From the IMG/VR virus record IMGVR_UViG_3300045988_028139: DNA of 49,037 bases; one strand, 5' to 3'. The notes under the pieces were generated by a model, which was not told the DNA's origin, did no database searches, and was given only the letters and a program-made list of their open reading frames with translations. Positions 1-49,037 of this stretch are shown here, piece by piece. This stretch comes from a virus. The stretch's first letter is position 1. The number at the start of each line of letters is the position of its first letter. The position numbers were made by a program, and so were the translations under genes.

Positions 1-55
1 GTATGGTCGCAATTTATAATCGTTTCCATAAGCCAGAGGTAGCCGTCCTCGTTCG
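1..55. repeat. Terminal duplication, copy 1 (identical to 48983-49037); assembly overlap of a circular molecule
   Basis: gtatggtcgcaatttataatcgtttccataagccagaggtagccgtcctcgttcg is read at both ends, and one ORF continues in frame across the junction. Confidence 0.95.
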
Positions 56-548
56 GGAACTTCCGGCGGAGTATGTCGAGCAGTACCCGGTGATCCACCC
101 GGTAAAAATACTTTGATACGTCCAGTTTCAGGTAGTACCATTTGCCCGGCTTCCGATCCACGAGCGTGCACCAGTATTGAAGCCGGTCGGCTGCTCTGGT
201 GGTTCCTTTTCCCACCCTGCACCCGTAGCTGTGGTATATCATGCCATTGTCGAGGTGTTGGTTTGTCTGGAGGTAGATCGCCCACTGCACGACACGATCC
301 CGGAAGCCCAGAGCCATGACGAGCCGTTTCTTCGGTTCATGGACGTAGAACTGCCGGTACCGGCCCACTTTGTAGGTGTGCCAGATCAGGTCGTTTTGTA
401 TGCTGATCAGGTTTTCCTCCAGATTCGCCGCGAAGGCGGTCACGTCGTTGCGGTACCACTTCTCGCTTGCTGCCTCGTGGTATGCGTCCAGAAGATTCTC
501 CCACGAGTATATTCTCTCCAGAAGGGAGGGCTGGTTTCTTGGATCCAT
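1..548 (-). CDS. DGR reverse transcriptase, N-terminal 182 codons; the gene wraps the window ends and continues at 48982..48385 (381 aa in total)
   Basis: ATG at 548-546 follows GGAGGA. My translation is MDPRNQPSLLERIYSWENLLDAYHEAASEKWYRNDV...HEPKKRLVMALGFRDRVVQWAIY...YGCRVGKGTTRAADRL...LKLDVSKYFYRVDH, with no stops. The codon at 2/1/48982 joins ORF 48385..49011 in frame. Confidence 0.93.
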   Translation of the reverse strand, partial: MDPRNQPSLLERIYSWENLLDAYHEAASEKWYRNDVTAFAANLEENLISIQNDLIWHTYKVGRYRQFYVHEPKKRLVMALGFRDRVVQWAIYLQTNQHLDNGMIYHSYGCRVGKGTTRAADRLQYWCTLVDRKPGKWYYLKLDVSKYFYRVDHRVLLDILRRKFPNEDGYLWLMETIINCDH

Positions 549-830
549 GTCCTCGTTCCTCCTTGTGTTGTCATAATTATGGCCCGCGTTGTGACATTCC
601 TCGGCGAGATCTTTCCTCTGCGGTCGCCACGCCGCAGGATCCGGATCCCCCTTCTGCCCGCATAGCAGACAACGGCCAGCCTGCGCGGTTTGCTCGGCGT
701 CCCCGGTGGCCTCCACCGGCAGAGCAGCACGAGCGTGTATCTTTGGCCTTGTCGGCCGGGAAATGCATCCCTTTTGCCTTGGTGTTTCTGCTGGGCCTTG
801 GCCCTCAGAAAATAAACAAATAAGGCAAGA
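549..830 (-). ncRNA. TR-to-RT spacer, presumed part of the DGR template/priming RNA
   Basis: Non-coding gap between the TR and the RT start. It contains the GGGCCAAGGCCC hairpin just 3' of the TR and a GGATCCGGATCC palindrome. ORFs listed here look spurious. Confidence 0.45.
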
Positions 831-944
831 GCGGCACGGAAGCCGATGTTCGTGTTCACATTGCTGCGGGAGTTGTTGCCGTTGAGGTAGAACACACCAG
901 CGTTCGCACCGTTGTTCCAGTTGCCCCCGCGATACACGCAGCGC
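831..944 (-). repeat. DGR template repeat (TR), 114 bp
   Basis: Aligns gap-free with 1414-1527 and 40253-40354. Every mismatch is at a plus-strand T, which is an A on the coding strand. The TR frame reads YRGGNWNNGANAGVFYLNGNNSRSNVNTNIGFRAA and is rich in AAC codons. Confidence 0.95.
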
Positions 945-975
945 CTCCTTTATCTCGACACATTCCCCACAGGCT

Positions 976-1320
976 TTACTCGTTCGACTTTTTCCAGCCG
1001 CCGAGCATACGCCCGATTTCGTTCAGCTCCTTGCTCCATATTTCGTGGAGCCCCGGAGAGATCAGGCGATCCTCCGGAGAAACTGCCGTGTCTACGAGAG
1101 AGCGCAGCACGTCCAGCTTGGTGTCCATTTTGTTCTGGAGTTCTACCCGGCGCGAGCCTCTGGCCCGGTTGGCCTCAATGCAGAGCTCCAGCATATCCAT
1201 GAACGCCGCCGTCATGTGCTTGCGATACTCGAATTTTTCGGGTTTTCTCATATTTGCGGTGCGTTCGCTCACCCGGATCATGCTCCGAACGATACGCTGC
1301 CGCAGTTGTAAGTTGTCCAT
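976..1320 (-). CDS. avd: DGR accessory variability determinant (Avd-like small helical protein)
   Basis: 114 aa, lying between target and TR as in canonical DGRs. The C-terminal ...EIGRMLGGWKKS resembles the Avd signature. RBS AAGGAG. Confidence 0.75.
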   Translation of the reverse strand: MDNLQLRQRIVRSMIRVSERTANMRKPEKFEYRKHMTAAFMDMLELCIEANRARGSRRVELQNKMDTKLDVLRSLVDTAVSPEDRLISPGLHEIWSKELNEIGRMLGGWKKSNE

Positions 1321-1342
1321 GTTGTTACTCCTTAAAAGGGTA

Positions 1343-1367
1343 GAGGGTGGCTTGGTGGGCCACCCTC
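1343..1367 (-). terminator. GC-rich hairpin downstream of VR1 (9-bp stem GAGGGTGGC/GCCACCCTC, 7-nt loop); DGR-type post-VR hairpin and/or weak terminator
   Basis: Read directly; 47 nt 3' of the VR1 end and followed by UACCCUUUU. Confidence 0.5.
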
Positions 1368-1391
1368 ATGCCAGATTTTCAGATTGCCGGA

Positions 1392-2489
1392 TTACCGGAT
1401 TTCCGGGATATAAGCGGCACGGAAGCCGATGATCGTGGACACAGCGCCGCGGGAGTTGTAGCCGCTGAGGGAGAACACACCAGCGTCCGCACCGCTGCCC
1501 CAGTAGCCCCCGCGATACACGCAGCGCTCGGCTACGTCGTTATTCCACCACATGTAGTCGCCCTCGTATACGTCAGTAGTGACGTCAGAGTCCGGGAGAA
1601 GGGCGAGAGCGCGCAGCATAACTTTGGCAGCGTCTCCGATCGAGCTGTCGGCAGCAACCTGATAAAAGGCGCAGCTTCGGCTTTCATCTTTGGCGTTGGT
1701 GATCGAAGTAGAGTACGTCCATTTGTTGTTCACATAGTCCAGTTTTACGGTTTTACCGGAAACATGGGCGGAGCTGTCGGTTGTATTGCTCTCAGGATCC
1801 ACGAGGGCGCCGTCTGCGGCGTTGATAGCCTTCCAGCATGTGCTCGTTGCGTTCTGAGGGTTGTCCGGATCGGCTGCGTCGTTGTTTGCAAGGATCTGAA
1901 GCTCGCCCCAAACAAGGCGGATTCCTCCCTGCCATTCCCACACGTTGCCGTTCAGATCCCAGATACCAGCCATGGTCTTGTCGTGGCTCCATGAGATCGG
2001 GCCGGTGCCAGTTGCAACTCTCGCGATCTTGCCGCTTTCGTAGTAGCTCGGCACGGCTTTGTAATTACTTTCGCGACTGTCTTTGCCGTAGTTGTTGTTA
2101 CCATACGGGAGGAAGCCGTTTTTCTTGCACCAGAGAGCGATCGCGGCCCATTCTGCGTTAGTGCTCAGGTGCCAGCCTGCGCCCTTGGCCTCGCAGCGTG
2201 CGCGTGCGGTGTCGAAGTTGATACTTGCGGTCGGATCTTCGCCCGGCAGGCTGTACGCTACGGAGTTGTAAACCTTGGCCTGATACTTGCCGTAGTAAAA
2301 GCCGGGGATTTCCACGCCGTTGACGATAAAGGCCGGGTGGGTGCTGTCATTTCCGCCGGTGAGTACGTCCGAGTTCTTAAACTTCGGGATATACACCAGA
2401 ACGGAAGGGAGATCGGTGTCGTCTGTCTTGACGACGTTGTTCGGGCAGATCATTTTTACTGCCAGATTGGTGAGGTCAAAATTTGCCAT
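1392..2489 (-). CDS. DGR target protein 1: FGE-sulfatase/C-type-lectin-fold receptor-binding (tail fibre tip) candidate
   Basis: 365 aa. FGE-like motifs CEAKGAGWHLSTNAEWAAIALW and GNVWEWQGG. C-terminal ...VYRGGYWGSGADAGVFSLSGYNSRGAVSTIIGFRAAYIPEIR carries VR1. It is the last gene of the tail module. Confidence 0.88.
   Translation of the reverse strand: MANFDLTNLAVKMICPNNVVKTDDTDLPSVLVYIPKFKNSDVLTGGNDSTHPAFIVNGVEIPGFYYGKYQAKVYNSVAYSLPGEDPTASINFDTARARCEAKGAGWHLSTNAEWAAIALWCKKNGFLPYGNNNYGKDSRESNYKAVPSYYESGKIARVATGTGPISWSHDKTMAGIWDLNGNVWEWQGGIRLVWGELQILANNDAADPDNPQNATSTCWKAINAADGALVDPESNTTDSSAHVSGKTVKLDYVNNKWTYSTSITNAKDESRSCAFYQVAADSSIGDAAKVMLRALALLPDSDVTTDVYEGDYMWWNNDVAERCVYRGGYWGSGADAGVFSLSGYNSRGAVSTIIGFRAAYIPEIR
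1414..1527 (-). repeat. DGR variable repeat 1 (VR1)
   Basis: 114 bp compared with the TR: 14 mismatches, all at TR adenines on the coding strand. It ends about 6 codons before the stop. Confidence 0.95.
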
Positions 2490-8427: not shown

Positions 8428-11400
8428 ATTGAGCCACCTCCCGCATTTTTATAAATTCTTCCAGCCAGTCGAAGAACTCGGCCTCGTGGGCTTTGAGCTT
8501 CGCCATGAAGTCGTCCGCGTCGTCGCCGGTTCCTTCTGTCTGGATCTGTGGGCTCCATGTGAAACCGGAGAAGTCGTAGTAAACTACCACGCCGCCACTG
8601 TCTGCCAGACTTCCGAGAGAGAAGTCGTCCAGAGTCAGAAGCCTTCCGGCCGTGCTTGTGAGTCCTTCGCCAGAAGATCCGCCGGTTGTGCTTGCAGTGT
8701 TGAACACTGAGGTGATCATGGTTTCCAACTTATCCCAGAGGGTTGCAAGAGGAACCACCGCCTCGGCGCCAGCTTCACCACCAGCCAGAAGATTGTTACC
8801 TGCTGCGCCGAAAATAGTCGGGCGCGTCAGAATACCGCCGTCCTTGTACCATGAAATACCGAAGTGTGGTACGCTTGGCGGGTTGATCGAGAAGCTGCCG
8901 CTGATACTCACATGAGGGAGTTTCAGGTGTGGCAGGCTCCACGAGAAATTAAACTTTGATTTTAGGGCGCTGATCGCGTTTCCTACGGCGTCCCTTGCTG
9001 CCGACATTTTGCTGCTGATCGTCGAGTAAATACTGGAGAACTTACCCGACACTGTGCTGAGTGCGGAGCTGAGTCCTGAACTCATGGTGGAAGTGATTCC
9101 ACTCATTAAGCTGGAAACGGTAGACTTTGCGCTGCTCAGTTTGCTGCTGATCGTGCTCCGGATGCTTTCCCATTGAGAGGAAGCGGTAGAGCTCACACTT
9201 GACCACGCAGAGCTTGCCACGCTGGTGATCGTACTCGTTGCCGAGCTTACGGCGGAACTGGCCGCCGAGATCTTGCTGCTCACTGTGGAGCTGATTGTGT
9301 TCCAGAGAGAGGAAGCCGTGGAGCTTACGCTTGACCATGCGGAACTTGCCACGCTGGTGATCGCACTCGTCGCGGTGCTTACTTTCTCCTTGGCTGCGTC
9401 GATTTTGGAACCGATCGTGCCCTTGATTCCTTCCCAGAGGGAGGAAGCCGTGGAGCTGATCGCGTTCCATGCTGCGCTTGCTACGTTGGAGATCGCAGTC
9501 GTCACCGTGGTGATCTTTTCTTTTACGGCGTCGATTTTTTCGCCGATCACGCTCTTGATAGTCTCCCAGATAGAGAGCACCGTGTCCTTGCAGTTTTCCC
9601 AGATAAACCGAAACGGCAGCGTGATGATCTGGAAGGCTGCGCTGATAATTTCCTTCACGGCCATGATCCCGACGGTCACAATGTTTTTAATTGTTTCCCA
9701 TGCTCCGGACAAAAATCCGGTGATTGAGTCCCAGATATTCGTGAAGGTGTCGTGGATCTCGGTCATGGTTCCGGTAACGCTCGAATAAATTCCGGATAAA
9801 ATTCCGGAGAAAAACGAGACGATCGCGTTCCATGTGTCCGTGAAAAATGTTTTGATTCCCGTCAGGATTCCGGAGAAAAACGACGAGATCGCGTTCCATG
9901 TGTCTGAGAAAAATGTTTTAACATTCGTCCAGACGGTTTCCCAGTCGGTGCCGAACCAGCCCAGAACGGTGTCCGCCAGAGAGGTGAACGTGCTGATCCA
10001 GTTCTCGAAGGTTGCCACAACGAAGTCCCAGACTGCGCCGAAAATTTCTTGGACGCCCTGCCATACCATGTCCCAGTCACCGGTAAAAATTCCGGCGAAG
10101 ATGTCAAACAGGCCGGTCAGAATGTCGAGGGCCTCGTTCAGAATATTGCTGATCTGCTGGAATACGCCCTCGAAAATCGGAGCGAGCACCTCGCAGAAGC
10201 CGTCCCAGACTGCCTTCATTACTTCGGTTATGTCCTCGAACTCGAACCCCAGCGCGTTGAGCCTGTCCACAATTCCTTGCCCGAACTCGTCGAACTTGGC
10301 CTTGATTCCGTCCCAGATCGCTGTGATCTTGTTCCTAAATTCTTCGTTGTTTTTCCATAAATTCGTAAAGGCGAGAGCCACGGCCGTGATCACTGCGATA
10401 ATAGCAATAGCCGGAAGCGATACGCCTCCCAGTGCTGCAGCGAGTTTTACCAGTGCGCCCTTCACCATTGCGATCTTGCTCGATATGGTTCCCCAGTTCA
10501 TAGCCGCGATAACGGCACCGAGGCCGCTCACCGCTATGGTCACTTCTGGGATATGTCCGCCGAGCCATTCGATCGCCGGGATCACGCCGTTGGTGATAAA
10601 CTGCACACCTGCTCGTAGCTTACTTTCCAGCGCGTCGTAAATTTTGAGCCCCAGTTCCTCGAAGGCGCTGTTCATTGCCGCCACGTCGCCGCTGAGGTTG
10701 TCGTTCATAATATTGGCCATTTCCTCAGCGGATCCAGAAGCTCCGCGGAGTTCTTCCTCGTACCCGGCGATATTGTCCATGCCTTCGTTGAGGATCAGGT
10801 TCAGGCCCTTGGTGGAGTCTGCGGTAAAAGTGGAAGATAGCGCGACGGCTCGTTCTGCGTCGCCCATTCCATTTGTGGCGGCTTCCACTTCTGTGAGAAT
10901 GTCGGTGAGATCTCGGAAGTTGCCCTGTGCGTCCATTACGGCCACGGAGGTTTCTCCGATCTTGATCGCGCCGTCCTTCATTCCGTTGGTTATGTCTCGC
11001 ATAATCGCGGCCATTGCGGTTCCGGCTTCGGATCCTTTGTAACCTTGGTTTGCCATTCCTTCGAGCAGCGAGGTGACGGTTTCGACGTCCTGCCCGGCTG
11101 CATTTAAGTTGGCTGCGCAGTTCTTGTAGGCTTCGCCCAGTGCTTCGGCCGTGGTGTTGCTGTGGCTTTGCGCGTAGGAGAGCAGATCTGCGAAGTATGC
11201 GGCGTCTCCGGCCTCCATGGCGAAGGCGCTCAGGTAGTCCGTTACCATGTCGGAAGCTGCTCCCAGTTCCATGCCAGAAGCGGCGGCCAGATTCAGAACG
11301 CCGCCCAACGCACTTGTGGACTGATCAGCGTCCCACCCGGCGAGGCTCATGTATTTGAGGGCCTCGGCTGCATTGCTGGCCGAGAAAACCGTGGTGGCGC

Positions 11401-12811: not shown

Positions 12812-13321
12812 TTAAAGCAGGTTGTTGATCTGGCTCATGTAGTCCTCGCCGTTGATACGGAGGATCTGAGCCAAACGGTCAACGCAGCAGATCTCGACGC
12901 CATTTGCGTAGATCTGGAGCCTTGTCACGTTGTAAGCGTTCTCGGCTTCGGTTGCGCTGCCGACTTCGACGCCCAGCTCAGGGAATGAGCCCGGCATAGT
13001 ACGCACAAAAGCCTTGCAGCCTTCGGTTGCGGTGGATCCGTCGGATTTTACGACATTCTGAACCCAGCGGAACTCGAAGCTCTGCTTTTTGAGGCGGTTC
13101 ATGCGGCGCAGGCCGTTGTCTACGCCGATCTTTGTAATGGAGAGCTCCATGTTCTCCAGAAGTCCGATCAGTGGCACGGTCATGTTACCCATGGCCTGCA
13201 CGTCAGCGGTTAAAAATTCAATACCGGGCAGAGTGAAGGCGACGTCCTTCGCCACCAGAGTGCTGTCCGCGTATACAGTGTCGGCCACTACTGGGCCTTT
13301 AATATCGAGCCATTTTGCCAT
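12812..13321 (-). CDS. Contractile tail tube protein (FII/XkdM-like)
   Basis: 169 aa immediately downstream of the sheath gene, with tube-family length and pattern. Confidence 0.75.
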   Translation of the reverse strand: MAKWLDIKGPVVADTVYADSTLVAKDVAFTLPGIEFLTADVQAMGNMTVPLIGLLENMELSITKIGVDNGLRRMNRLKKQSFEFRWVQNVVKSDGSTATEGCKAFVRTMPGSFPELGVEVGSATEAENAYNVTRLQIYANGVEICCVDRLAQILRINGEDYMSQINNLL

Positions 13322-24191: not shown

Positions 24192-24879
24192 ACTTCATGG
24201 CCTGCTGGACGTGGTGGGTGAATCTCTTTTCCAGTCCTTCGCTGATCATTGCCTCGATCGTTTCCTTCGCTCGGCCGTCGATCATCTGGGGGACTGATAA
24301 AGTGTGGACAGCTTCCAGCGGGCCGCGCCCGGAGCCGGTTCTTTGAAATGGAATGGCGGGCACCTTACCCGCCCCCATGAATGTGTTGTCCGGGAGCCTT
24401 GCTCGCTGTCCTTTTATAATCTGGGCGGTTATCTGATACGGTGCCGGTGGTCGAACCGTTCCAACTTCCGGGGAGCTGTTCAGCATTTGGCCGGGAATTA
24501 GGATAGGAGCCCGGCGGCGCTTTGTTGGTCTGCTCTTTGGTGACATCTTGAAGTGTGTCGGCGTCAGTGTGCGGCCTTTATATTCCAGCGTCGCCCCGTC
24601 AACAGATACCCCCGCGACATTTATGTGGGTGGCCCCTCTCTTTTTTTGAGGCCCGGCACTCTTGATCGCGGCGGTGTCAACTCCGTAATGCTGGCGGATT
24701 CCCTTCGATACCCACGCGGGAGCTCTGGAGTTGAAGTCGGATACGGTTCGCTGGATCGCTACCTTGCCCCCGTTTTCGAGCTTGGCGATCTGCTTTGCCA
24801 GTTTGGCGCCGTCCTTCATGGTGACAGTGAAGGCGCCGCTGGTGTGCCTGCCTGATCCGGAGTAAAACAAATTGCTCAT
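24190..24879 (-). CDS. Virion-type protein, tentatively lambda gpZ-like (internal start ATG at 24879)
   Basis: 229 aa from the RBS AAAGGAGG-spaced ATG. The architecture loosely parallels minor tail protein Z; this is a weak call. Confidence 0.35.
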   Translation of the reverse strand: MSNLFYSGSGRHTSGAFTVTMKDGAKLAKQIAKLENGGKVAIQRTVSDFNSRAPAWVSKGIRQHYGVDTAAIKSAGPQKKRGATHINVAGVSVDGATLEYKGRTLTPTHFKMSPKSRPTKRRRAPILIPGQMLNSSPEVGTVRPPAPYQITAQIIKGQRARLPDNTFMGAGKVPAIPFQRTGSGRGPLEAVHTLSVPQMIDGRAKETIEAMISEGLEKRFTHHVQQAMK

Positions 24880-24905
24880 GTGCGCCCCTCCTTTCTGATT
24901 TTGGG

Positions 24906-24940
24906 TATAAAAATACCGCCTTGGGTTTTCCCTTGGCGGT
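24906..24940 (-). terminator. Rho-independent terminator
   Basis: ACCGCC-AA-GGG-AAAA-CCC-AA-GGCGGT followed by AUUUUUAU on the minus strand. Confidence 0.6.
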
Positions 24941-24949
24941 AGTGGTTGG

Positions 24950-25564
24950 TTATTTTGTTTTGGTTCCGTTCGGTGTGAACTCGTGGAGAACATTGTCCGG
25001 TGTTTCTATTCGGATCATGTTCCCAGATATTTTGGCCGAGAACTGGAGCGTCGCGCGTCCTTCGGAGCTGTAATGGATCTTTTTTCTCCAGCTCGCTGCG
25101 GTAGAGAGGTTGATCAGTTTAACATTGACGGCCGGGATCTCTTTGTCGTTCTCGTCGTAGTCGCTGTCGGCGTCGTATACCACAACGCAGAACTCAGGGG
25201 TGAGAGCCCATGCGTCGAGGATAGCGTCCCCGCAGAGTTTCTTCGTGGCGGCTTTTCCTTCGCTCAGAGTAAAGAGAGTGCCTTCGTCGCTCAGTGCGTA
25301 GCCGATCCCGTCGTCAGTTATAACGGCGTCCTCTATGAGTTCCTCCGTTTTTCTTATCCGGATTCCTCTCACCTTTGTTGCGATCGCGATCCCTTCGTTT
25401 GCGTTTGCGTCCATTCCCGTGAGAATATAATACTCGCCAGACTGAGAGGCCCACGCTTTGTCAGCGTCGAACCACTCCTTGCCGTTTCTCGTGAAAATAC
25501 CCGGCTTTCCGTTTCTCTGTGAGATCTCCCAGCTTTCTGCCTTGGTTCCGTTATTTAATCCCAT
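24950..25564 (-). CDS. Hypothetical protein
   Basis: 204-aa ORF with RBS AAGGAGG and its own near-consensus promoter. Confidence 0.6.
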   Translation of the reverse strand: MGLNNGTKAESWEISQRNGKPGIFTRNGKEWFDADKAWASQSGEYYILTGMDANANEGIAIATKVRGIRIRKTEELIEDAVITDDGIGYALSDEGTLFTLSEGKAATKKLCGDAILDAWALTPEFCVVVYDADSDYDENDKEIPAVNVKLINLSTAASWRKKIHYSSEGRATLQFSAKISGNMIRIETPDNVLHEFTPNGTKTK

Positions 25565-25586
25565 TGTGGTGTCCTCCTTATGGTTT

Positions 25587-25603
25587 AGTCATCTTTGGGA
25601 TAT
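25587..25603 (-). promoter_or_regulatory. Third copy (opposite strand) of the promoter-proximal 17-mer ATATCCCAAAGATGACT
   Basis: 15/17 identical to TTATCCCAAACATGACT at 44564 and 44619. It abuts the TATAAT box, as copy 2 does. Confidence 0.7.
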
Positions 25604-25631
25604 TATACAACGGAGCGGCGGTGCTTATCAA
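25602..25631 (-). promoter_or_regulatory. Sigma70-like promoter TTGATA-18 nt-TATAAT
   Basis: Read on the minus strand, about 35 nt upstream of the 25564 start. Confidence 0.6.
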
Positions 25632-25755
25632 TCCTCCGTCCGGAAAATTTGCACCCCTCCCAGTTCTTTTCTGAGGGTAGGCACATAGGAAAAACCGCCC
25701 GGATCTTTATCATGTCCCCGGACGGCTTTCGCTGTTATACAGAGTAGCACGGTGG

Positions 25756-27770: not shown

Positions 27771-27954
27771 GTTTTCGTTCCTCCTTTATTTTGATAGGCC
27801 GGTGGCAATACGGGCACGTCCCGGCTTTGATATTTTTCTTTGTGACCGCGCTCGCGATCTCGTAGTACATGTGGCAGCTCGTTGAGTACCACTCTTTAAA
27901 GCCGAGCCCCGGCACCCATGAGCAGGCGCCGGTCTTTTTGCTTGGCCAGCTCAC
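27760..27954 (-). CDS. Small zinc-ribbon protein (GTG start coupled to the upstream stop)
   Basis: GTGA start/stop overlap with 27951..28535. Contains CSWVPG...SCHMYY...CPYCH. The 3' end overlaps the methyltransferase start. Confidence 0.5.
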   Translation of the reverse strand: MSWPSKKTGACSWVPGLGFKEWYSTSCHMYYEIASAVTKKNIKAGTCPYCHRPIKIKEERKHGL

Positions 27955-28535
27955 TTTTTGCCCTCTGTCCGGCGGTCGTCCGGTGCGCACTTGCCGGTTG
28001 GTAGCTGTACGGTATCAATAGTTTGTGCTGCTTTCAGGATTCTGCGGCGGTATTGCTTCCAGCTTTCGTCCTGTTTCTTTACGACGCCATAGATCGGGCC
28101 CACATTGGAGAGGGTGAGCTGTTCCATGGTTTCGTATTTCGGCAGACTGCGCGGGGAAAACCCCAGCTTTTCTCGGATCCTTTTCTCGTAGTCGGTGTTG
28201 TTTTCGCCTTTATTTCTTCTGATACCATAAATGGGGCCGACGCCGTTTAGCGTGAGCCCTTTCATGGATTCGTCCAGAGTGCGGGAGATCTTTCTCCTGC
28301 GATTGTATTCCCTGATCTTTTTCCCAGTTCGCCCGATCCAGATCAGGAGAGCAGCCACCCAGAGAGTGATCAGTAGCAGTGCGGTGGGTACCCACACGAG
28401 CCCGGCGATCACCACCGGCCAGCTCATTGATATAACGTCGCAGGCTTTCAGGATTGCCAGCATGGCCACACCTGCGAGTGTTGCCAGTGTGTAGAGTAAC
28501 GGCCAGCCCATAGGCTTGTTCTTGTTATCGTCCAT
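27951..28535 (-). CDS. Membrane protein with an internal duplication
   Basis: Three predicted TM segments at the N-terminus, then GLTLNGVGPIYGIRRNKGENNTDYEKRIREKL and QLTLSNVGPIYGVVKKQDESWKQYRRRILKA. Confidence 0.6.
   Translation of the reverse strand: MDDNKNKPMGWPLLYTLATLAGVAMLAILKACDVISMSWPVVIAGLVWVPTALLLITLWVAALLIWIGRTGKKIREYNRRRKISRTLDESMKGLTLNGVGPIYGIRRNKGENNTDYEKRIREKLGFSPRSLPKYETMEQLTLSNVGPIYGVVKKQDESWKQYRRRILKAAQTIDTVQLPTGKCAPDDRRTEGKK
27965..27981. repeat. Copy C of the dispersed 17-mer CTGTCCGGCGGTCGTCC
   Basis: Identical to the first 17 nt of 35822 and 36267. Confidence 0.85.
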
Positions 28536-39170: not shown

Positions 39171-39905
39171 TTACCTCCTTCTTTGTCTGAGTTTGGCCGG
39201 GAGCGTATAGCTCGGAGCCTGCATGTATTTGTTGAAATTCTGCGGCCAGTAGGCCACCTTTTCGATCCGTTTCCCACTTACTCCATACTTCGGGTTATAT
39301 CCGAACACGTTCACATAGCTGAGAAGATCGGAGCGTTCCGCGTCCATGGCCTTGCACACCTCAAACAGTGCCGCCACGTCGTCGATCGCTCTGTGGGAGT
39401 TCTGAACCTTGTCCTCCAGCTTATAGGTGAGGATCGCGTTCGCCAGCTTGTGAGGATATGCCCGGCGGTCTTTGTAAACGGTTAGGCTGTCCAGATAGTC
39501 GGCAGCTTTCAGGACTTCCGGGCCACCGTTTCCGTGTCTCCGGAGCATTTCAGCAGTAAACAGGAGATCAAACTGTGCATTGTGGGCTACCAGAAGGACG
39601 CGGCCGCCGCCGATCAACTCAGTGAAGCGAGCGGCAGCCTCAGTCTCGGTGATTCCTTCGTTTTCGAGCTGCTCGTCTGTGATCCCTGTTAGCTCGACGA
39701 TCTTCTGAGGGATCCGCTCACCTTCCGGCAGTTTCACGAACACGTCGGCGCTGTCGGCCATGCGGAGGGTGCCCCGTTCGGTTTTCTCGACTCTGATCGC
39801 TGCCAGTTCAATGATCTGGCAGCTTTCAGCTTCGAGCCCGGTTGTCTCAGTGTCAAAAAATACGACTGCTTTGTATTTCGTGAATATGTCCCGGAGCTCA
39901 TTCAT
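39171..39905 (-). CDS. DnaQ-like 3'-5' exonuclease
   Basis: Exo motifs VVFFDTETTGL, LVAHNAQFDLLF and HRAIDDVAAL. Confidence 0.85.
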   Translation of the reverse strand: MNELRDIFTKYKAVVFFDTETTGLEAESCQIIELAAIRVEKTERGTLRMADSADVFVKLPEGERIPQKIVELTGITDEQLENEGITETEAAARFTELIGGGRVLLVAHNAQFDLLFTAEMLRRHGNGGPEVLKAADYLDSLTVYKDRRAYPHKLANAILTYKLEDKVQNSHRAIDDVAALFEVCKAMDAERSDLLSYVNVFGYNPKYGVSGKRIEKVAYWPQNFNKYMQAPSYTLPAKLRQRRR

Positions 39906-41160
39906 GGTCGTTCACCTCTGTTTTGATTGTGATCGAGGTTGTGGCTGCGAGCTTTAACTGCTTAGCGGTCAGCTCGTACATGTCCACGGCTGCGTTCACC
40001 TGAGCCAGTGTGGCGCTGAGTTTTGCAGCCTTGGCAAGTTCTTCGTCTGTTGCCTTCTCTGCCAGTTCAGCGAAGCCTTCCGGATCCTCGCCGTGCGCGG
40101 CTTCGTAGAGCTTCTGAAACTGCCGGGCGAGTGCCTGCTTGATCCGTCCGATAAAGTCCGGAGCTAAAATGCTACGCTTTTTCGGTTCTGGCTGCTTCTT
40201 GTCAGAGTCCAGATCGTCCAGAGTGTCAGAGTCGCAGATAAACCGAACGCAAGCGGCACGGAAGCCGATGCCCGGGCCCACATAGCTGCGGGAGTAGGTG
40301 CCGTAGAGGTAGAACACACCAGCGCCCGCACCGTGGCTCCAGGCGCCCCCGCGAAAAATAACCCGCTCGCCGTTAGAGTCGAGCCAGAAGTATTCGTCGC
40401 TTTCGTAGCCGTCGGCAGGATAGAGGCCGAGATCTTTCAGCTTGTCCGGCACGTCCATGTCGCTGCGAGCTTCCAGATCCGTGAACTTTACGCCGTCGTA
40501 GTCTGTGCCGTCCGGGTGTACCGGTTGGAGGGTGATCTCACCGCCGTGCACGTTGTAGTAAACCGGATCGCCGTCCTCGGTGTAGATTGCCTCCCACTCC
40601 GGCGAGTCTTTGGACTGATCCGCGCCATAGGCTGCGCCGTTGTTCGGGATCACCTGCGGCATACCGTCCATAAATCGAACGCCGCCGGCGTGTTCCCAGA
40701 TGTTACCGCACATGTCAGCTACACCGTAGGCCGTGCCGTCATGGTTCCACTGAACCGGGCCGGATCCGGTCAAGGTCTTGCCGCAGCCTCCTTCGTATGT
40801 AGTGCCGGTCTGCTCCGGGTGGCTGTGACTCTTGCCGCTTGCGGTGTTTCCGGTCGGCATGGTGTCGTTGTCCCAGCTCCAGAAGCCGAGAGCCACCCAC
40901 TCGTCGTTAGTGATCAGGTGCCAGCCTTCGCCCTTGCTCTCACAGAGGCGGATTGCTTCGTCGCGGCTGATATTCACAGCCGGTTTCATAAATGGGAGAG
41001 AGTACGGAACGCCGTCGATCAATGTGTTCTGGTACTTGCTGATCGCGTATTCCTTAACCTTGCGGCCTCTCAGGGTGTCAGGGAGTCCCAGCTCGGACGG
41101 GGTAAAAACCACCATAATGTCCGGGCGCCCGTTTTTGTCGTAAATTACTTCGTTTCTCAT
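39898..41160 (-). CDS. DGR target protein 2: FGE/C-type-lectin-fold paralog with an internal VR and a helical C-terminal extension
   Basis: ATG at 41160 with RBS AAAGGAG. CESKGEGWHLITNDEWVALGFW and GNIWEHAGG. ...IFRGGAWSHGAGAGVFYLYGTYSRSYVGPGIGFRAA is followed by about 117 codons. Confidence 0.85.
   Translation of the reverse strand: MRNEVIYDKNGRPDIMVVFTPSELGLPDTLRGRKVKEYAISKYQNTLIDGVPYSLPFMKPAVNISRDEAIRLCESKGEGWHLITNDEWVALGFWSWDNDTMPTGNTASGKSHSHPEQTGTTYEGGCGKTLTGSGPVQWNHDGTAYGVADMCGNIWEHAGGVRFMDGMPQVIPNNGAAYGADQSKDSPEWEAIYTEDGDPVYYNVHGGEITLQPVHPDGTDYDGVKFTDLEARSDMDVPDKLKDLGLYPADGYESDEYFWLDSNGERVIFRGGAWSHGAGAGVFYLYGTYSRSYVGPGIGFRAACVRFICDSDTLDDLDSDKKQPEPKKRSILAPDFIGRIKQALARQFQKLYEAAHGEDPEGFAELAEKATDEELAKAAKLSATLAQVNAAVDMYELTAKQLKLAATTSITIKTEVNDHE
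40253..40354 (-). repeat. DGR variable repeat 2 (VR2)
   Basis: 102 bp aligned to TR 831-932: 15 mismatches, all at TR adenines. Homology breaks down beyond TR position 934. Confidence 0.93.
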
Positions 41161-46065: not shown

Positions 46066-47645
46066 TTTGAGACGTTGGCCGCGTCCACCCAGCCGTAGAC
46101 ATTGGACTGGCTGTCAGTGTGTACGATATGGGACGGGTGCTTTGCGCCCTTCACAATTCTGGTGACTTTGGCCGGGCCAGCTTTCGGAGATCCGGCAGCA
46201 GTTGAAGCTGCAGCGCTTCCGTAGTGAGGGCCACCAGAGAACTGAACCACGTCGCCGACTTTGATCTCAGAGCTTGCAGATCCGGCAGCGTTTCCGCCGT
46301 CGGTCGTTACGATTGCGTCGAAGCCCTTCGCTTTCAGCTTTTTGACTTCGGCGTCGGCGTTTGCTTTCTTGGAGTAGGCGCCGGTCTGTACCTTGTAGAA
46401 GCCGCCGGACTGTTTGAGAATGGCGTCAAAACCGGCAGCCTTCACCTTTTTGAGCTGAGCGTCGGCGTTTGCTTTCTGCTTATAGGCGCCGGTCTGGACG
46501 TAGTATTTCACGCCGGAACCGCCGGACGGGGTATTATTTCCGCCGGAGTTGCCGGAGTCAGTAGAGCCGAGCAGTGCGTTGATTCTGTCGGCGAGCTCCC
46601 CATATCTGGAATAAAGCCAGTCGCCGGGGCACGATTTATTCGCGAACCAGCGGTGCGCGGTGAGGACGATCTCGTTCGCCTTCGGCTCGTATGCGAGAGC
46701 CTTCTCCTTGCTGCCGAGCCAGAGCACCTTCGTTTTTCCGTTTCTCTTGCAGATGTCAGCGCAGAGCTTGATCAGTTTCTCATAAACTGCGGATTTCATG
46801 GCGTATGGTTCGGCCTTATCGCTGGCGCACTCGATCGTGATCGCTCGCTGGTCATTTGCGTTGCTGGAGCTGCACCAGCTCCGGTTGCACTCGTCCACGA
46901 TCAGGCAGACGCGGCCGTCGTACCCGATCCCGTAGTTGCAACTTGCGTCCCTGCCTTTAGGGAAGCAGGCGCCGATCGTTTCGGCAGATAACTGGCCGAC
47001 TACGCAGTGTGGCGTCAGGCGGTCGATCGAGTGGGTTCTCTTTCCACTGTGGTTAGGGCTGTAAACTGTGCAGTCCACTAATGAACTATTGCTCATGGTT
47101 TTACCTCCTTGTGTGTCGTTGGTTGTCTTGGTAGCGTATTTGTTGAAGTAGGTCTGCCCGTAGCTGGCCCGCTTTGTCTGGACGCTGGCGCTCTGATCCT
47201 TTGGCTGTTCATATTTGAGCAGCACGGCGTCGGAAGCTTGTCTCACGCTGGTGGCTTTTTTCAGCACGGCCAGCACCGCGGCGTAGCTTTCGGCGAGTTC
47301 TTTCCAGAGGAAGCCGAGCTGAGTTTCCAGATCTCCGATCGAGGCACCGGCAGCCTTGACATAATTCAGGAGCGCCTCCTTGCGGCTCCAGAATGTCCAC
47401 TGCGCGAGGCCGTAGCCTGCGGAGTCATGCACGAAGCCGGTATACTTTCCGGAGTCCACCGCGTCGGTGTAGTCGTCGTCTGTATAGCCGAGCTTTTTCT
47501 CGTAGGTGTTCTGGAGGTTGTGAGGGTTGAGCCCGCTCTCCGCGAACAGGTTCCCCATGAGTCCGGCGGCCCCGTATGAGTTCAGGCCCTTGCCGGTGAG
47601 GAAATTCCAGATCTTTTCCTCGTTGTTTTTTCCAATGAGTGACAT
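46062..47645 (-). CDS. Multidomain endolysin: lysozyme-like N-domain, Amidase_2-type amidase, SPOR domain and SH3-like C-terminus
   Basis: GAAGLMGNLFAESGLNP...GYGLAQWT; HSIDRLTPHCVVG...ITIECASD...LTAHRWF..KSCPG; YYVQTGAYKQKANADAQLKKVKAAGFDA; IKVGDVVQF... Confidence 0.85.
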   Translation of the reverse strand: MSLIGKNNEEKIWNFLTGKGLNSYGAAGLMGNLFAESGLNPHNLQNTYEKKLGYTDDDYTDAVDSGKYTGFVHDSAGYGLAQWTFWSRKEALLNYVKAAGASIGDLETQLGFLWKELAESYAAVLAVLKKATSVRQASDAVLLKYEQPKDQSASVQTKRASYGQTYFNKYATKTTNDTQGGKTMSNSSLVDCTVYSPNHSGKRTHSIDRLTPHCVVGQLSAETIGACFPKGRDASCNYGIGYDGRVCLIVDECNRSWCSSSNANDQRAITIECASDKAEPYAMKSAVYEKLIKLCADICKRNGKTKVLWLGSKEKALAYEPKANEIVLTAHRWFANKSCPGDWLYSRYGELADRINALLGSTDSGNSGGNNTPSGGSGVKYYVQTGAYKQKANADAQLKKVKAAGFDAILKQSGGFYKVQTGAYSKKANADAEVKKLKAKGFDAIVTTDGGNAAGSASSEIKVGDVVQFSGGPHYGSAAASTAAGSPKAGPAKVTRIVKGAKHPSHIVHTDSQSNVYGWVDAANVSK

Positions 47646-48049: not shown

Positions 48050-48406
48050 TTAGCTTTCATAAATAGATTCGATCCCCTGCCTCGTCAGGAAGTCCTTCTG
48101 CTCATGTTTGACCTTGGCGGCATAGTCGAGGGCCGCGTGCATATCACCGTTGCAGTGGGCGTCCGGGATCCGCTGCACGGCTCTGGCCGTGGCTTCTCCG
48201 AGGGCGATCGCAGCGTTCACTCCCTGCACTAAAAAAAGCTCCTGCTGTTCGTGGAGCTTTTCGCGCTTGTCCTGAGCTTCTCGTCGCTGTTTTTCTTCCT
48301 TCTCCAGTTTCTTGCTCTGTTTCTGGATTTTCTGCTCGATACACCAGAAGCAGAACCCAGTGATCGCCGAAGGAAGGCAGGCGATCAAAACTGATTCAAT
48401 TCCCAT
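48050..48406 (-). CDS. Membrane/coiled-coil protein, first gene of the lysis cassette (internal start ATG at 48406)
   Basis: RBS GGAGGTGA; MGIESVLIACLPSAITGFCFWCI...; the start overlaps the RT stop by 22 nt. Confidence 0.5.
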   Translation of the reverse strand: MGIESVLIACLPSAITGFCFWCIEQKIQKQSKKLEKEEKQRREAQDKREKLHEQQELFLVQGVNAAIALGEATARAVQRIPDAHCNGDMHAALDYAAKVKHEQKDFLTRQGIESIYES

Positions 48407-49037
48407 TGTGTCACCTCCTGCGGCAGCTCTATGTCTGCCATTTCTTTGCGTTTGAAAATAATATTTTTCTCGATCCATTTCTGGAGCCCGTGAGTGGAGC
48501 AGTGGCCCATAAGTCCGAAGTAGCTCTGCATGGTCGCGTCTACCGCGTCGAAGTCGATCAGCACGGCCTCGTACTCTTTCGCTATGTAGCGCATACGTGC
48601 CTTCATTTTCTTGACCGACTGAGCTGTCGGTTTGCGGTACCCCGGATAGATTCGGCAGCCCACGAAGGTGATCCCGTGCTTGACGAGTCCGATCGTGGTT
48701 TTGCTGTTCAATTCGAGGTGCAGGACTTCGTTCAGATACTTCTCGATCGCAACCCTCCACCGGTTCAGTGTGGCCGCGTCAGGATAGAGCAGCGCCATGT
48801 CGTCCATGTATCTGTCGTAAAAATGGGCTTTCAGCTCGTGCTTGATATACTGATCCAGCTCATTGAGGCAGACGTTCGCGAGTAGCTGGCTCGTGAGGTT
48901 TCCGATCGGCATACCTACCTCGAACAGTCTTTCAGACGGTGGGATCTCGTCGGCGGACTTTCCCGGAGGCAGTCCAAAGGGTGTATGGTCGCAATTTATA
49001 ATCGTTTCCATAAGCCAGAGGTAGCCGTCCTCGTTCG
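48385..49037 (-). CDS. DGR reverse transcriptase, C-terminal part (continuation of 548..1)
   Basis: GMPIGNLTSQLLANVCLNELD, the YMDDMALL (YxDD) box and GITFVGCRIY. 48983-49037 duplicates 1-55. Confidence 0.93.
   Translation of the reverse strand, partial: NEDGYLWLMETIINCDHTPFGLPPGKSADEIPPSERLFEVGMPIGNLTSQLLANVCLNELDQYIKHELKAHFYDRYMDDMALLYPDAATLNRWRVAIEKYLNEVLHLELNSKTTIGLVKHGITFVGCRIYPGYRKPTAQSVKKMKARMRYIAKEYEAVLIDFDAVDATMQSYFGLMGHCSTHGLQKWIEKNIIFKRKEMADIELPQEVTQWELNQF
48983..49037. repeat. Terminal duplication, copy 2 (identical to 1-55)
   Basis: Direct comparison of the two ends. Confidence 0.95.

Follow-up and report, generated by a model that had tools for sequence, protein, structure and literature searches.

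The IMG/VR virus record IMGVR_UViG_3300045988_028139, the whole 49,037-nucleotide stretch of which is called the window here, contains on its minus strand a diversity-generating retroelement (DGR) in the order target gene, avd (accessory variability determinant), template repeat (TR) and reverse transcriptase (RT) gene. We read this locus as an active, canonical DGR of a Lagaffevirus, with a probability of about 95%, and nothing that we found contradicts its being a DGR. The element is already known, having been published for the near-identical phage FP_Lagaffe. Cornuault 2018 (PMC5883640) described a TR and variable repeat (VR) pair of that phage, an Avd homologue, a target of the FGE superfamily and extra read variability of the VR in virion DNA, and Gulyaeva 2024 (PMC11792537) described a second VR and found both VRs to vary among 18 cognate genomes. 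Because of these publications, the locus has no importance as a discovery. What is added here is a co-converted TR polymorphism as independent evidence of TR-to-VR transfer, an RNA with two duplexes recovered by covariation and a candidate target-recognition array. The analysis also provides a positive control, in that a complete DGR, its remote second VR and origin-split RT gene included, was recoverable from the raw sequence.

Template and variable repeats differ at template adenines

The TR (830-944) and the first variable repeat, VR1 (1413-1527), aligned without gaps over 115 nt, one nucleotide more than the 114 given in an earlier note on this DNA, in which the ungapped alignment itself was correctly described. 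The two repeats differ at 14 positions, each of which is a coding-strand adenine in the TR (hypergeometric P = 1.3e-11), exactly as that note had counted, and on realignment no mismatch was seen at a non-adenine TR position. The TR contains 25 adenines, 18 of them in nine AAC codons, again in line with the earlier description; its reading frame is RCVYRGGNWNNGANAGVFYLNGNNSRSNVNTNIGFRAA, also written ...GGNWNNGANAGVFYLNGNNSRSNVNTNIGFRAA, the form in which it agrees with that note. The second variable repeat, VR2, located about 38.8 kb from the TR, carries 15 mismatches over 103 nt, all of them at adenines, and one further adenine-site difference at 40355. Its homology to the TR is shorter, because non-adenine differences set in upstream of TR position 933. 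For the two TR/VR pairs, the restriction of the differences to adenines has a P value of about 1e-11 to 3e-12.

The 3' end of the repeats had been reported as invariant, and the stretch CATCGGCTTCCGTGCCGC(T) is indeed identical in the TR, VR1 and VR2 of the window; its single adenine is mutated in two relatives, L003 and L005. A GC-rich, adenine-free 17-mer at the 3' end is shared exactly by the three repeats and is present in exactly three copies in the window, so that a search for a third VR with this 17-mer across the window returned only the TR, VR1 and VR2. A match with three mismatches on the other strand, at 12942, was considered as a third VR and dismissed as likely due to chance (about 0.3 matches expected).

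Both variable repeats diversify in the lineage

To judge from nucleotide identity along the whole genome and from synteny, both with the type phage FP_Lagaffe, the source of the window is a Lagaffevirus, a temperate Faecalibacterium myophage from the gut. The first 12 kb of the window are 98.5% identical to FP_Lagaffe, and collinear matching blocks of 96.7-99.1% identity cover nearly all of a 48,982-bp unit. We treated the window as a circular unit of this size since its first 55 nt recur exactly at its end (1-55 = 48983-49037); this direct repeat is a circular-assembly overlap or a terminal repeat, and the true unit is 48,982 bp.

In the 3 kb around the cassette, the window and FP_Lagaffe differ at 56 positions, 17 of which fall within the 115 nt of VR1, and 16 of these 17 are at adenine-templated sites. 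The remaining one, at 1441 (T in the window, C in FP_Lagaffe), mirrors a T/C difference at TR position 858, and the same T/C difference is found at the VR2 position that matches TR 858 (40280). As the three repeats share this difference, a point change in the TR has been copied into both VRs since the two phages diverged. By comparison of the sequences, this is a natural marker co-conversion, and the TR 858 allele tracks the VR1 allele perfectly in eight IMG/VR relatives.

The same pattern was observed when VR columns were compared between relatives. In VR1 of eight IMG/VR contigs with near-identical TRs, 24 of the 25 adenine-templated columns vary, versus 5 of the 90 others; one of these five tracks the TR allele, and another is a column in which the TR of that contig gained an adenine. 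The same two fractions hold for a set of nine close relatives. For VR2, the comparison of 11 close relatives revealed variation in all 25 adenine columns, versus 4 of 90 other columns and 30 of 300 flanking columns. Local TR/VR pairs from about 35 more distant relatives differ almost only at adenines as well; the scan of these relatives penalised non-adenine mismatches more heavily, which biases its segment boundaries, a bias of which the column-wise counts for VR1 and VR2 are free. Between genomes with 96-99% identity in their remaining sequence, 16-17 of the 115 VR positions are different; the adenine-templated VR columns are hypervariable in close relatives and the TR is conserved. The comparisons between relatives show that both VRs are being rewritten from the TR in this lineage, with one-way transfer from TR to VR in populations.

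The reverse transcriptase and Avd

The RT gene runs across the ends of the record. Once these are joined at the 55-nt overlap, the frame that starts with the ATG at 547 stays open for 381 codons and ends with the stop at 48385; it is intact, as the earlier note had expected. An AAGGAGG ribosome-binding site is located 8 nt upstream of the ATG. The GenBank entry of FP_Lagaffe gives an RT of 437 aa that starts 56 codons further upstream, inside the structured spacer RNA (548-716, minus strand). We prefer the 381-aa start because of the ribosome-binding site upstream of it and because the alignment to the BPP-1 RT (bRT) starts at residue 7.

The best match of the RT in the PDB is bRT (8ub7, E = 1.4e-38). 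The alignment retains PIGNLTSQ (IGxLTSQ), YMDD and the counterparts of K29, F66, R74, I181, G182 and Q187, the bRT residues that contact the template and the nucleotide (10.1101/2023.10.23.563531); YMDD and DGR-like N-terminal motifs had been pointed out earlier. In a tblastn search of a phage collection, the matches listed (68 records) were RTs of DGR-carrying or DGR-type phages, with identities of 48% for Saumur, 46% for BalMu-1, 41% for VP585, 40% for VHML and 31% for BPP-1. By this pairwise and profile similarity the protein, with its motif 4 of the IGxxxSQ type and its YxDD box, belongs to the DGR clade of RTs, in agreement with the class that had been proposed for it.

The adjacent avd gene, which had been reported between the target and the TR, encodes a protein that scores 93.2 bits against the NCBIfam equivalog NF033474 (DivGenRetAVD; cut-off 80) and matches Pfam PF22296 (bAvd) with E = 1e-13. 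The accessory protein next to the TR is thus of the Avd rather than the HRDC kind.

We also considered a retron, group II intron or antiviral RT system as the source of the RT, with the three repeats as ordinary paralogous sequences under gene conversion. The RT has weak NCBIfam matches to group II maturase (100 bits, cut-off 300), retron St85 and Drt families, and several database records call its homologues 'retron-type'. All of these scores are, however, far below the cut-offs, and among solved relatives bRT leads with an E-value that is 27 orders of magnitude lower (8e-12 for the group II RT that matches best, about 1e-10 for retron-type RTs). A search of Rfam, with gathering thresholds for the whole window and with E<=1 for positions 1-1600, returned no known RNA family and no msDNA (multicopy single-stranded DNA) or intron RNA domains. 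Gene conversion, for its part, cannot confine the differences to the adenines of one copy (P about 1e-11), and an Avd is present. We therefore regard this explanation as extremely improbable and retain the assignment to a DGR. The features of the element are collected in Table 1.

Table 1. Features of the DGR and of its two targets in the window
Feature	Position	Strand	Remarks
TR	830..944	-	template repeat
VR1	1413..1527	-	3' end of target gene 1
VR2	40252..40354	-	within target gene 2
RT, N-terminal part	1..547	-	start ATG 545-547; Pfam RVT_1
RT, C-terminal part	48385..48982	-	continues across the circular join
avd	976..1320	-	114 aa; NCBIfam NF033474, Pfam bAvd
Spacer RNA	548..829	-	282 nt from TR to RT; structured, conserved
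Segment upstream of TR (GGGGAATGTGTC)	957..968	-	partner strand is spacer nt 61-72; corresponds to the avd:Sp 'stop' duplex in BPP-1
GC-rich hairpin/cruciform	1343..1367	-	9-bp stem, 1343-1351/1359-1367; 7-nt loop CCACCAA
TCYG array after VR1	1372..1399	-	motifs at +13, +21, +29, +37 from the end of TR identity
TCTG array after VR2	40203..40238	-	motifs at +13, +21, +29, +38, +45; in coding sequence (DSDTLDDLDSD)
Target gene 1	1392..2489	-	365 aa; Mtd/TaqVP-type C-type-lectin/FGE-fold variable protein; directly after the baseplate genes
Target gene 2	39898..41160	-	420 aa; paralogous lectin-fold protein; ATG as in FP_Lagaffe, open frame reaches 41268

RNA duplexes on both sides of the template repeat

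The spacer between the TR and the RT gene is a structured RNA by covariation. In an alignment of 16 relatives (A1), 92.9% of the cells are paired, versus 34-49% in slid controls, and compensatory changes are found in 27 pairs, versus 8-11 in the slid controls. Two duplexes bracket the TR. In the first of them, the primer duplex, the nucleotides directly 3' of the TR (828-822, UUGCCUU) pair with spacer nt 50-56 (780-774, AAGGCAA), and the latter strand is directly followed by an invariant AAGGG. An invariant AAA was likewise noted after the primer strand. In the second duplex, the segment 968-957 upstream of the TR pairs with spacer nt 61-72 (769-758); its 12 pairs are formed in 100% of the cells in 12 relatives, and five of them show compensatory changes. 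When both duplexes were analyzed together in 12 lineages (alignment A2), 99.6% of the cells were paired and 10 of the 19 pairs carried compensatory changes, versus 0-4 in slid controls. A local hairpin of spacer nt 59-72, predicted by RNAalifold, was rejected in favor of the long-range duplex with the upstream segment, as the duplex covaries and the local hairpin does not.

At the level of pairing, this is a structured spacer RNA of the BPP-1 type. The cryo-electron microscopy structure of the BPP-1 complex revealed a duplex between the TR and the spacer (TR:Sp) that presents spacer adenosine A56 as the primer, and an adjacent avd:Sp duplex that helps to stop synthesis. By analogy, priming in the phage studied here would occur from an adenosine at 772-774, with 829/830 as the first templated base. 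The architecture of primer and stop duplexes was thus recovered by covariation alone in a phage of Firmicutes, the RT of which is only 31% identical to that of BPP-1, and this supports the generality of the priming mechanism.

The hairpin downstream of VR1 and caveats on the reading

The hairpin reported 47 nt 3' of VR1 was found at the same site, 1343-1367; it begins 45 nt past the last base shared by TR and VR1. Relatives keep its position as well as the 7-nt loop CCACCAA, and their stems show covariation, while more distant relatives and the phages Saumur, BalMu-1, Dulem virus 37, VP585 and ACA1 have GGTA or GATA loops. In BPP-1, both the stem structure and the loop sequence of the hairpin matter (Guo et al., PMC3240598). 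The possibility that the hairpin of the window is an intrinsic terminator was considered as well, but a consensus scan does not call it so, because the T tract is too weak.

Several caveats attach to the reading as an active, canonical DGR. The loop after VR1 has 7 nt and is not the 4-nt GRNA that BPP-1 requires, in which lengthening by 2 nt abolished activity (PMC3240598). VR2 lacks a hairpin (40130-40251 in the window, and in the relatives), yet its diversification in relatives is equal to that of VR1. Downstream of the TR and of the VRs, the sequences are unrelated to each other and do not form near-identical pairs of the type of the BPP-1 initiation of mutagenic homing element and its TR counterpart (IMH and IMH*). 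Non-adenine VR differences exist in relatives, in 3 of 90 columns. The activity shown by the sequences of relatives is that of the lineage and not of this genome, and a culture of Lagaffe_CP was without read-level variation (Gulyaeva 2024, PMC11792537).

Cases with downstream regions of this kind are mentioned by Wu et al., who find inverted repeats in only 34% of DGRs. A stem-loop is reported to raise the efficiency but not to be strictly required (PMC12875486), with which the diversification of VR2 in the absence of a hairpin agrees. According to Wu et al., an IMH identical to its IMH* implies that the recognized sequence reaches further downstream, and the locus in the window, where the 17-mer is the same in the TR and both VRs, is such a case.

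The lack of variation in the Lagaffe_CP culture speaks for a fossil cassette, with the TR, VRs and RT still intact but no longer diversifying, and with VR differences that are old. We consider this very unlikely. The relatives that are otherwise 96-99% identical would not be expected to differ so strongly in their VRs if the cassette were a fossil, both VRs of each lineage have received a copy of the recent change at TR 858, the RT, Avd and spacer pairings are all intact, and elevated VR read variability was reported in Lagaffe virions (Cornuault 2018). An active DGR remains our reading of the locus.

A periodic CTG array downstream of the variable repeats

At the position that the experimentally defined IMH occupies in BPP-1, both VRs are followed by a periodic array of CTG triplets. 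In the VR1 array, only the first motif is coding, being part of the final codons ahead of the stop of target gene 1 (1392-1394), whereas the other three are non-coding; this array is nearly invariant in relatives, whereas the adjacent hairpin stem varies. The VR2 array is within the coding sequence, and in target 2 lineages that are only 61% identical the encoded peptide is SGDSGDLDNLD instead of DSDTLDDLDSD, with the TCTG positions fixed.

The array is not limited to close relatives. In a search with target 1, at least three CTGs at 7-9 nt spacing within 55 nt past the VR were found in 13 of 15 distinct lineages, whereas such chains occurred in 1.2% of the background windows and in none of the TR flanks of this set. 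In an independent set, in which the RTs are 46-100% identical, the CTG chain follows 23 of 36 distinct VRs and 0 of 36 TRs, and CTG is by far the most periodic trinucleotide in the 36 VR flanks. The unit is approximately W-A-A-W-C-T-G, repeated with a spacing of 7 or 8 nt in three to five copies (mode four), with the first CTG at a median of +12. The relatives that carry the array include L003-L063, L084-L087 and L090-L169, as well as Saumur, BalMu-1 and Dulem virus 37; phage ACA1 has TTG where the others have CTG. The IMH of BPP-1 reads GTCTGTGACCACCTGATTCTTGAG, and the five differences between IMH and IMH* remove the middle CTG from the TR copy.

We tentatively propose, at somewhat less than even odds, that a large clade of Avd-type phage DGRs uses the CTG array as its true IMH, the signal by which the target is recognized. 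It would mark the recipient as opposed to the donor, with or without a hairpin, and its reader would be a protein, either Avd-RT or a replication factor of the host, and not RNA pairing. In the 250 nt of spacer and 120 nt upstream of the TR of 36 lineages, neither a periodic CAG nor any other periodic trinucleotide was found, and visual inspection of the spacer of the window revealed only scattered CAGA. Since the DGR RNA lacks a complementary periodic motif, a protein reader is more likely than RNA pairing. It is speculation that the array relates to CTG being the triplet at which bacterial primase initiates, which would be in line with a lagging-strand integration model. The primases of Firmicutes prefer triplets other than CTG.

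Alternatively, the array may not be a DGR signal at all but a leftover of the shared ancestry of the target genes, or else an element at the junction between target and avd that acts in translation or transcription. The two targets are paralogous, so that their flanks could have a common origin, the VR1 array is located between genes, immediately ahead of avd, where one would expect regulatory signals, and the link between the array and homing is a comparative one. Set against this are the common register of the two arrays, despite the mostly non-coding nature of the one at VR1 and the coding function of the one at VR2, an acidic linker with residues that vary between lineages around a fixed TCTG, the recurrence after 23 of 36 VRs of DGRs with RTs of only 46-60% identity, in Saumur, BalMu-1 and Dulem virus 37 too, but after no TR, the lack of any other strongly periodic trinucleotide and the loss of the middle CTG from the TR copy in BPP-1. 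This second explanation of the array is in our view a serious one, if rather doubtful.

In a limited search of DGR papers we found no description of a periodic CTG element, and the array may be undescribed. As a conserved, countable and easily mutated element that separates VRs from TRs, the array provides a concrete hypothesis of target recognition, and it could be of use in designing synthetic DGR targets. It bears on a question that is described as open, namely by which route the cDNA reaches its target and is taken up there (PMC12875486).

Proposed mechanism

Together, these elements suggest the following working model. One RNA would be transcribed that takes in the TR (115 nt), together with the end of avd on one side and the spacer (282 nt) on the other, and would fold such that two adjacent duplexes bracket the TR, one between the 7 nt 3' of it and spacer nt 50-56, the other between the 12 nt upstream and spacer nt 61-72. 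The RT-Avd complex, by analogy with BPP-1, would prime cDNA synthesis from the adenosine at the end of the first duplex, copy the TR with misincorporation only opposite adenines and stop near the second duplex. The mutagenized cDNA would then replace the homologous VR in two targets, the lectin-fold protein encoded after the baseplate genes and its paralogue in the early region. The recipient VRs differ from the donor TR in what lies downstream, a CTG run with 7-8 nt spacing and, in the case of VR1 only, a GC hairpin.

Target proteins

Target 1 matches TaqVP, the variable protein of a Thermus aquaticus DGR (PDB 5vf4, PMC6328139), across residues 28-361 (E = 3e-48), and the alignment includes the VR segments at the C-termini of the two proteins. 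It also has a Pfam FGE-sulfatase match, and its counterpart in FP_Lagaffe is labeled 'BPP-1 major tropism-determinant-like protein'. Target 2 matches the same structure with E = 6e-36, and both targets belong to phrog_2889. The matches to TaqVP and to the FGE-sulfatase fold place the VR in the ligand-binding part of a lectin-fold target. TaqVP is the best solved relative of both proteins, but it is a target of a bacterial chromosomal DGR and not a phage tail protein.

The two targets differ in the location of the VR, which is C-terminal in target 1 and internal in target 2, where about 115 residues follow it, an acidic linker and then a tail of about 100 residues; this C-terminal segment is extra in comparison to TaqVP. 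An internal VR is rare for lectin-fold targets (Wu et al.). Target gene 2 lies far from the tail genes, in the early/replication-recombination region, between an IS30-type integrase/HTH (helix-turn-helix) module and an exonuclease gene, and the layout with two targets is kept in lineages only 61% identical.

Target 1 is most likely the receptor-binding tip, as suggested by its homology to TaqVP/Mtd-type lectin-fold proteins and by its position after the baseplate genes. The earlier note had described the phage as equipped to diversify this tip. The diversification of the VR is borne out by the relatives, and the role of the protein at the tip is predicted from homology and gene position.

Comparison with FP_Lagaffe and BPP-1

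With FP_Lagaffe (MG711461 / NC_047911), the window shares the gene order, TR, Avd, RT (98.7% identical), both targets and both VR positions, and it differs at adenine-templated sites of VR1 and VR2 and in the single TR substitution (858 T/C) that is copied in both VRs. Along the genome, genes for baseplate J/I-like proteins are followed by three small open reading frames (ORFs), the target, avd, the TR, the RT gene, genes for two small membrane proteins and the endolysin gene. The order of tail, DGR and lysis genes inferred earlier from the letters is therefore correct, and it agrees with the annotated genome of FP_Lagaffe, in which the BPP-1 Mtd-like protein, an Avd-like protein and a reverse transcriptase lie between baseplate and lysis genes.

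The DGR of BPP-1 (mtd-avd-TR-brt) has the same cassette order, likewise between tail and lysis genes. The two systems have in common an Avd, the active-site and template-contact residues of the RT, a lectin-fold target with a C-terminal VR, two RNA duplexes bracketing the TR, with a spacer adenosine as the (here putative) primer, and a GC hairpin after the target site. However, besides the low identity of the RTs, the spacer of the window has 282 nt as compared to about 144 nt between TR and brt in the annotation of BPP-1, a near-identical IMH/IMH* pair is lacking, and the hairpin loop is CCACCAA instead of GAAA. The window contains in addition a second, distant target with an internal VR and no hairpin, and it has a regular array of 4-5 CTG copies, whereas BPP-1 has TCTG, CCTG and CTTG at irregular spacing.

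Other features of the genome

A scan for tRNA genes in the window detected none. Two segments of the otherwise collinear genome have no megablast match to FP_Lagaffe, one of about 1.45 kb at 24192-25641, with minus-strand ORFs of 267 and 204 aa, and the other at 27789-28007. A 132-nt repeat, present three times in tandem with 67-78% identity, occupies 9141-9584, where the window aligns with the FP_Lagaffe tape-measure gene. The endolysin gene contains, close to its 3' end (46312-46517), a 108-nt repeat that is present twice in tandem (73% identical) and encodes modules of the form ...GAYKQKANADA...KAAGFDA..., which resemble cell-wall-binding repeats.

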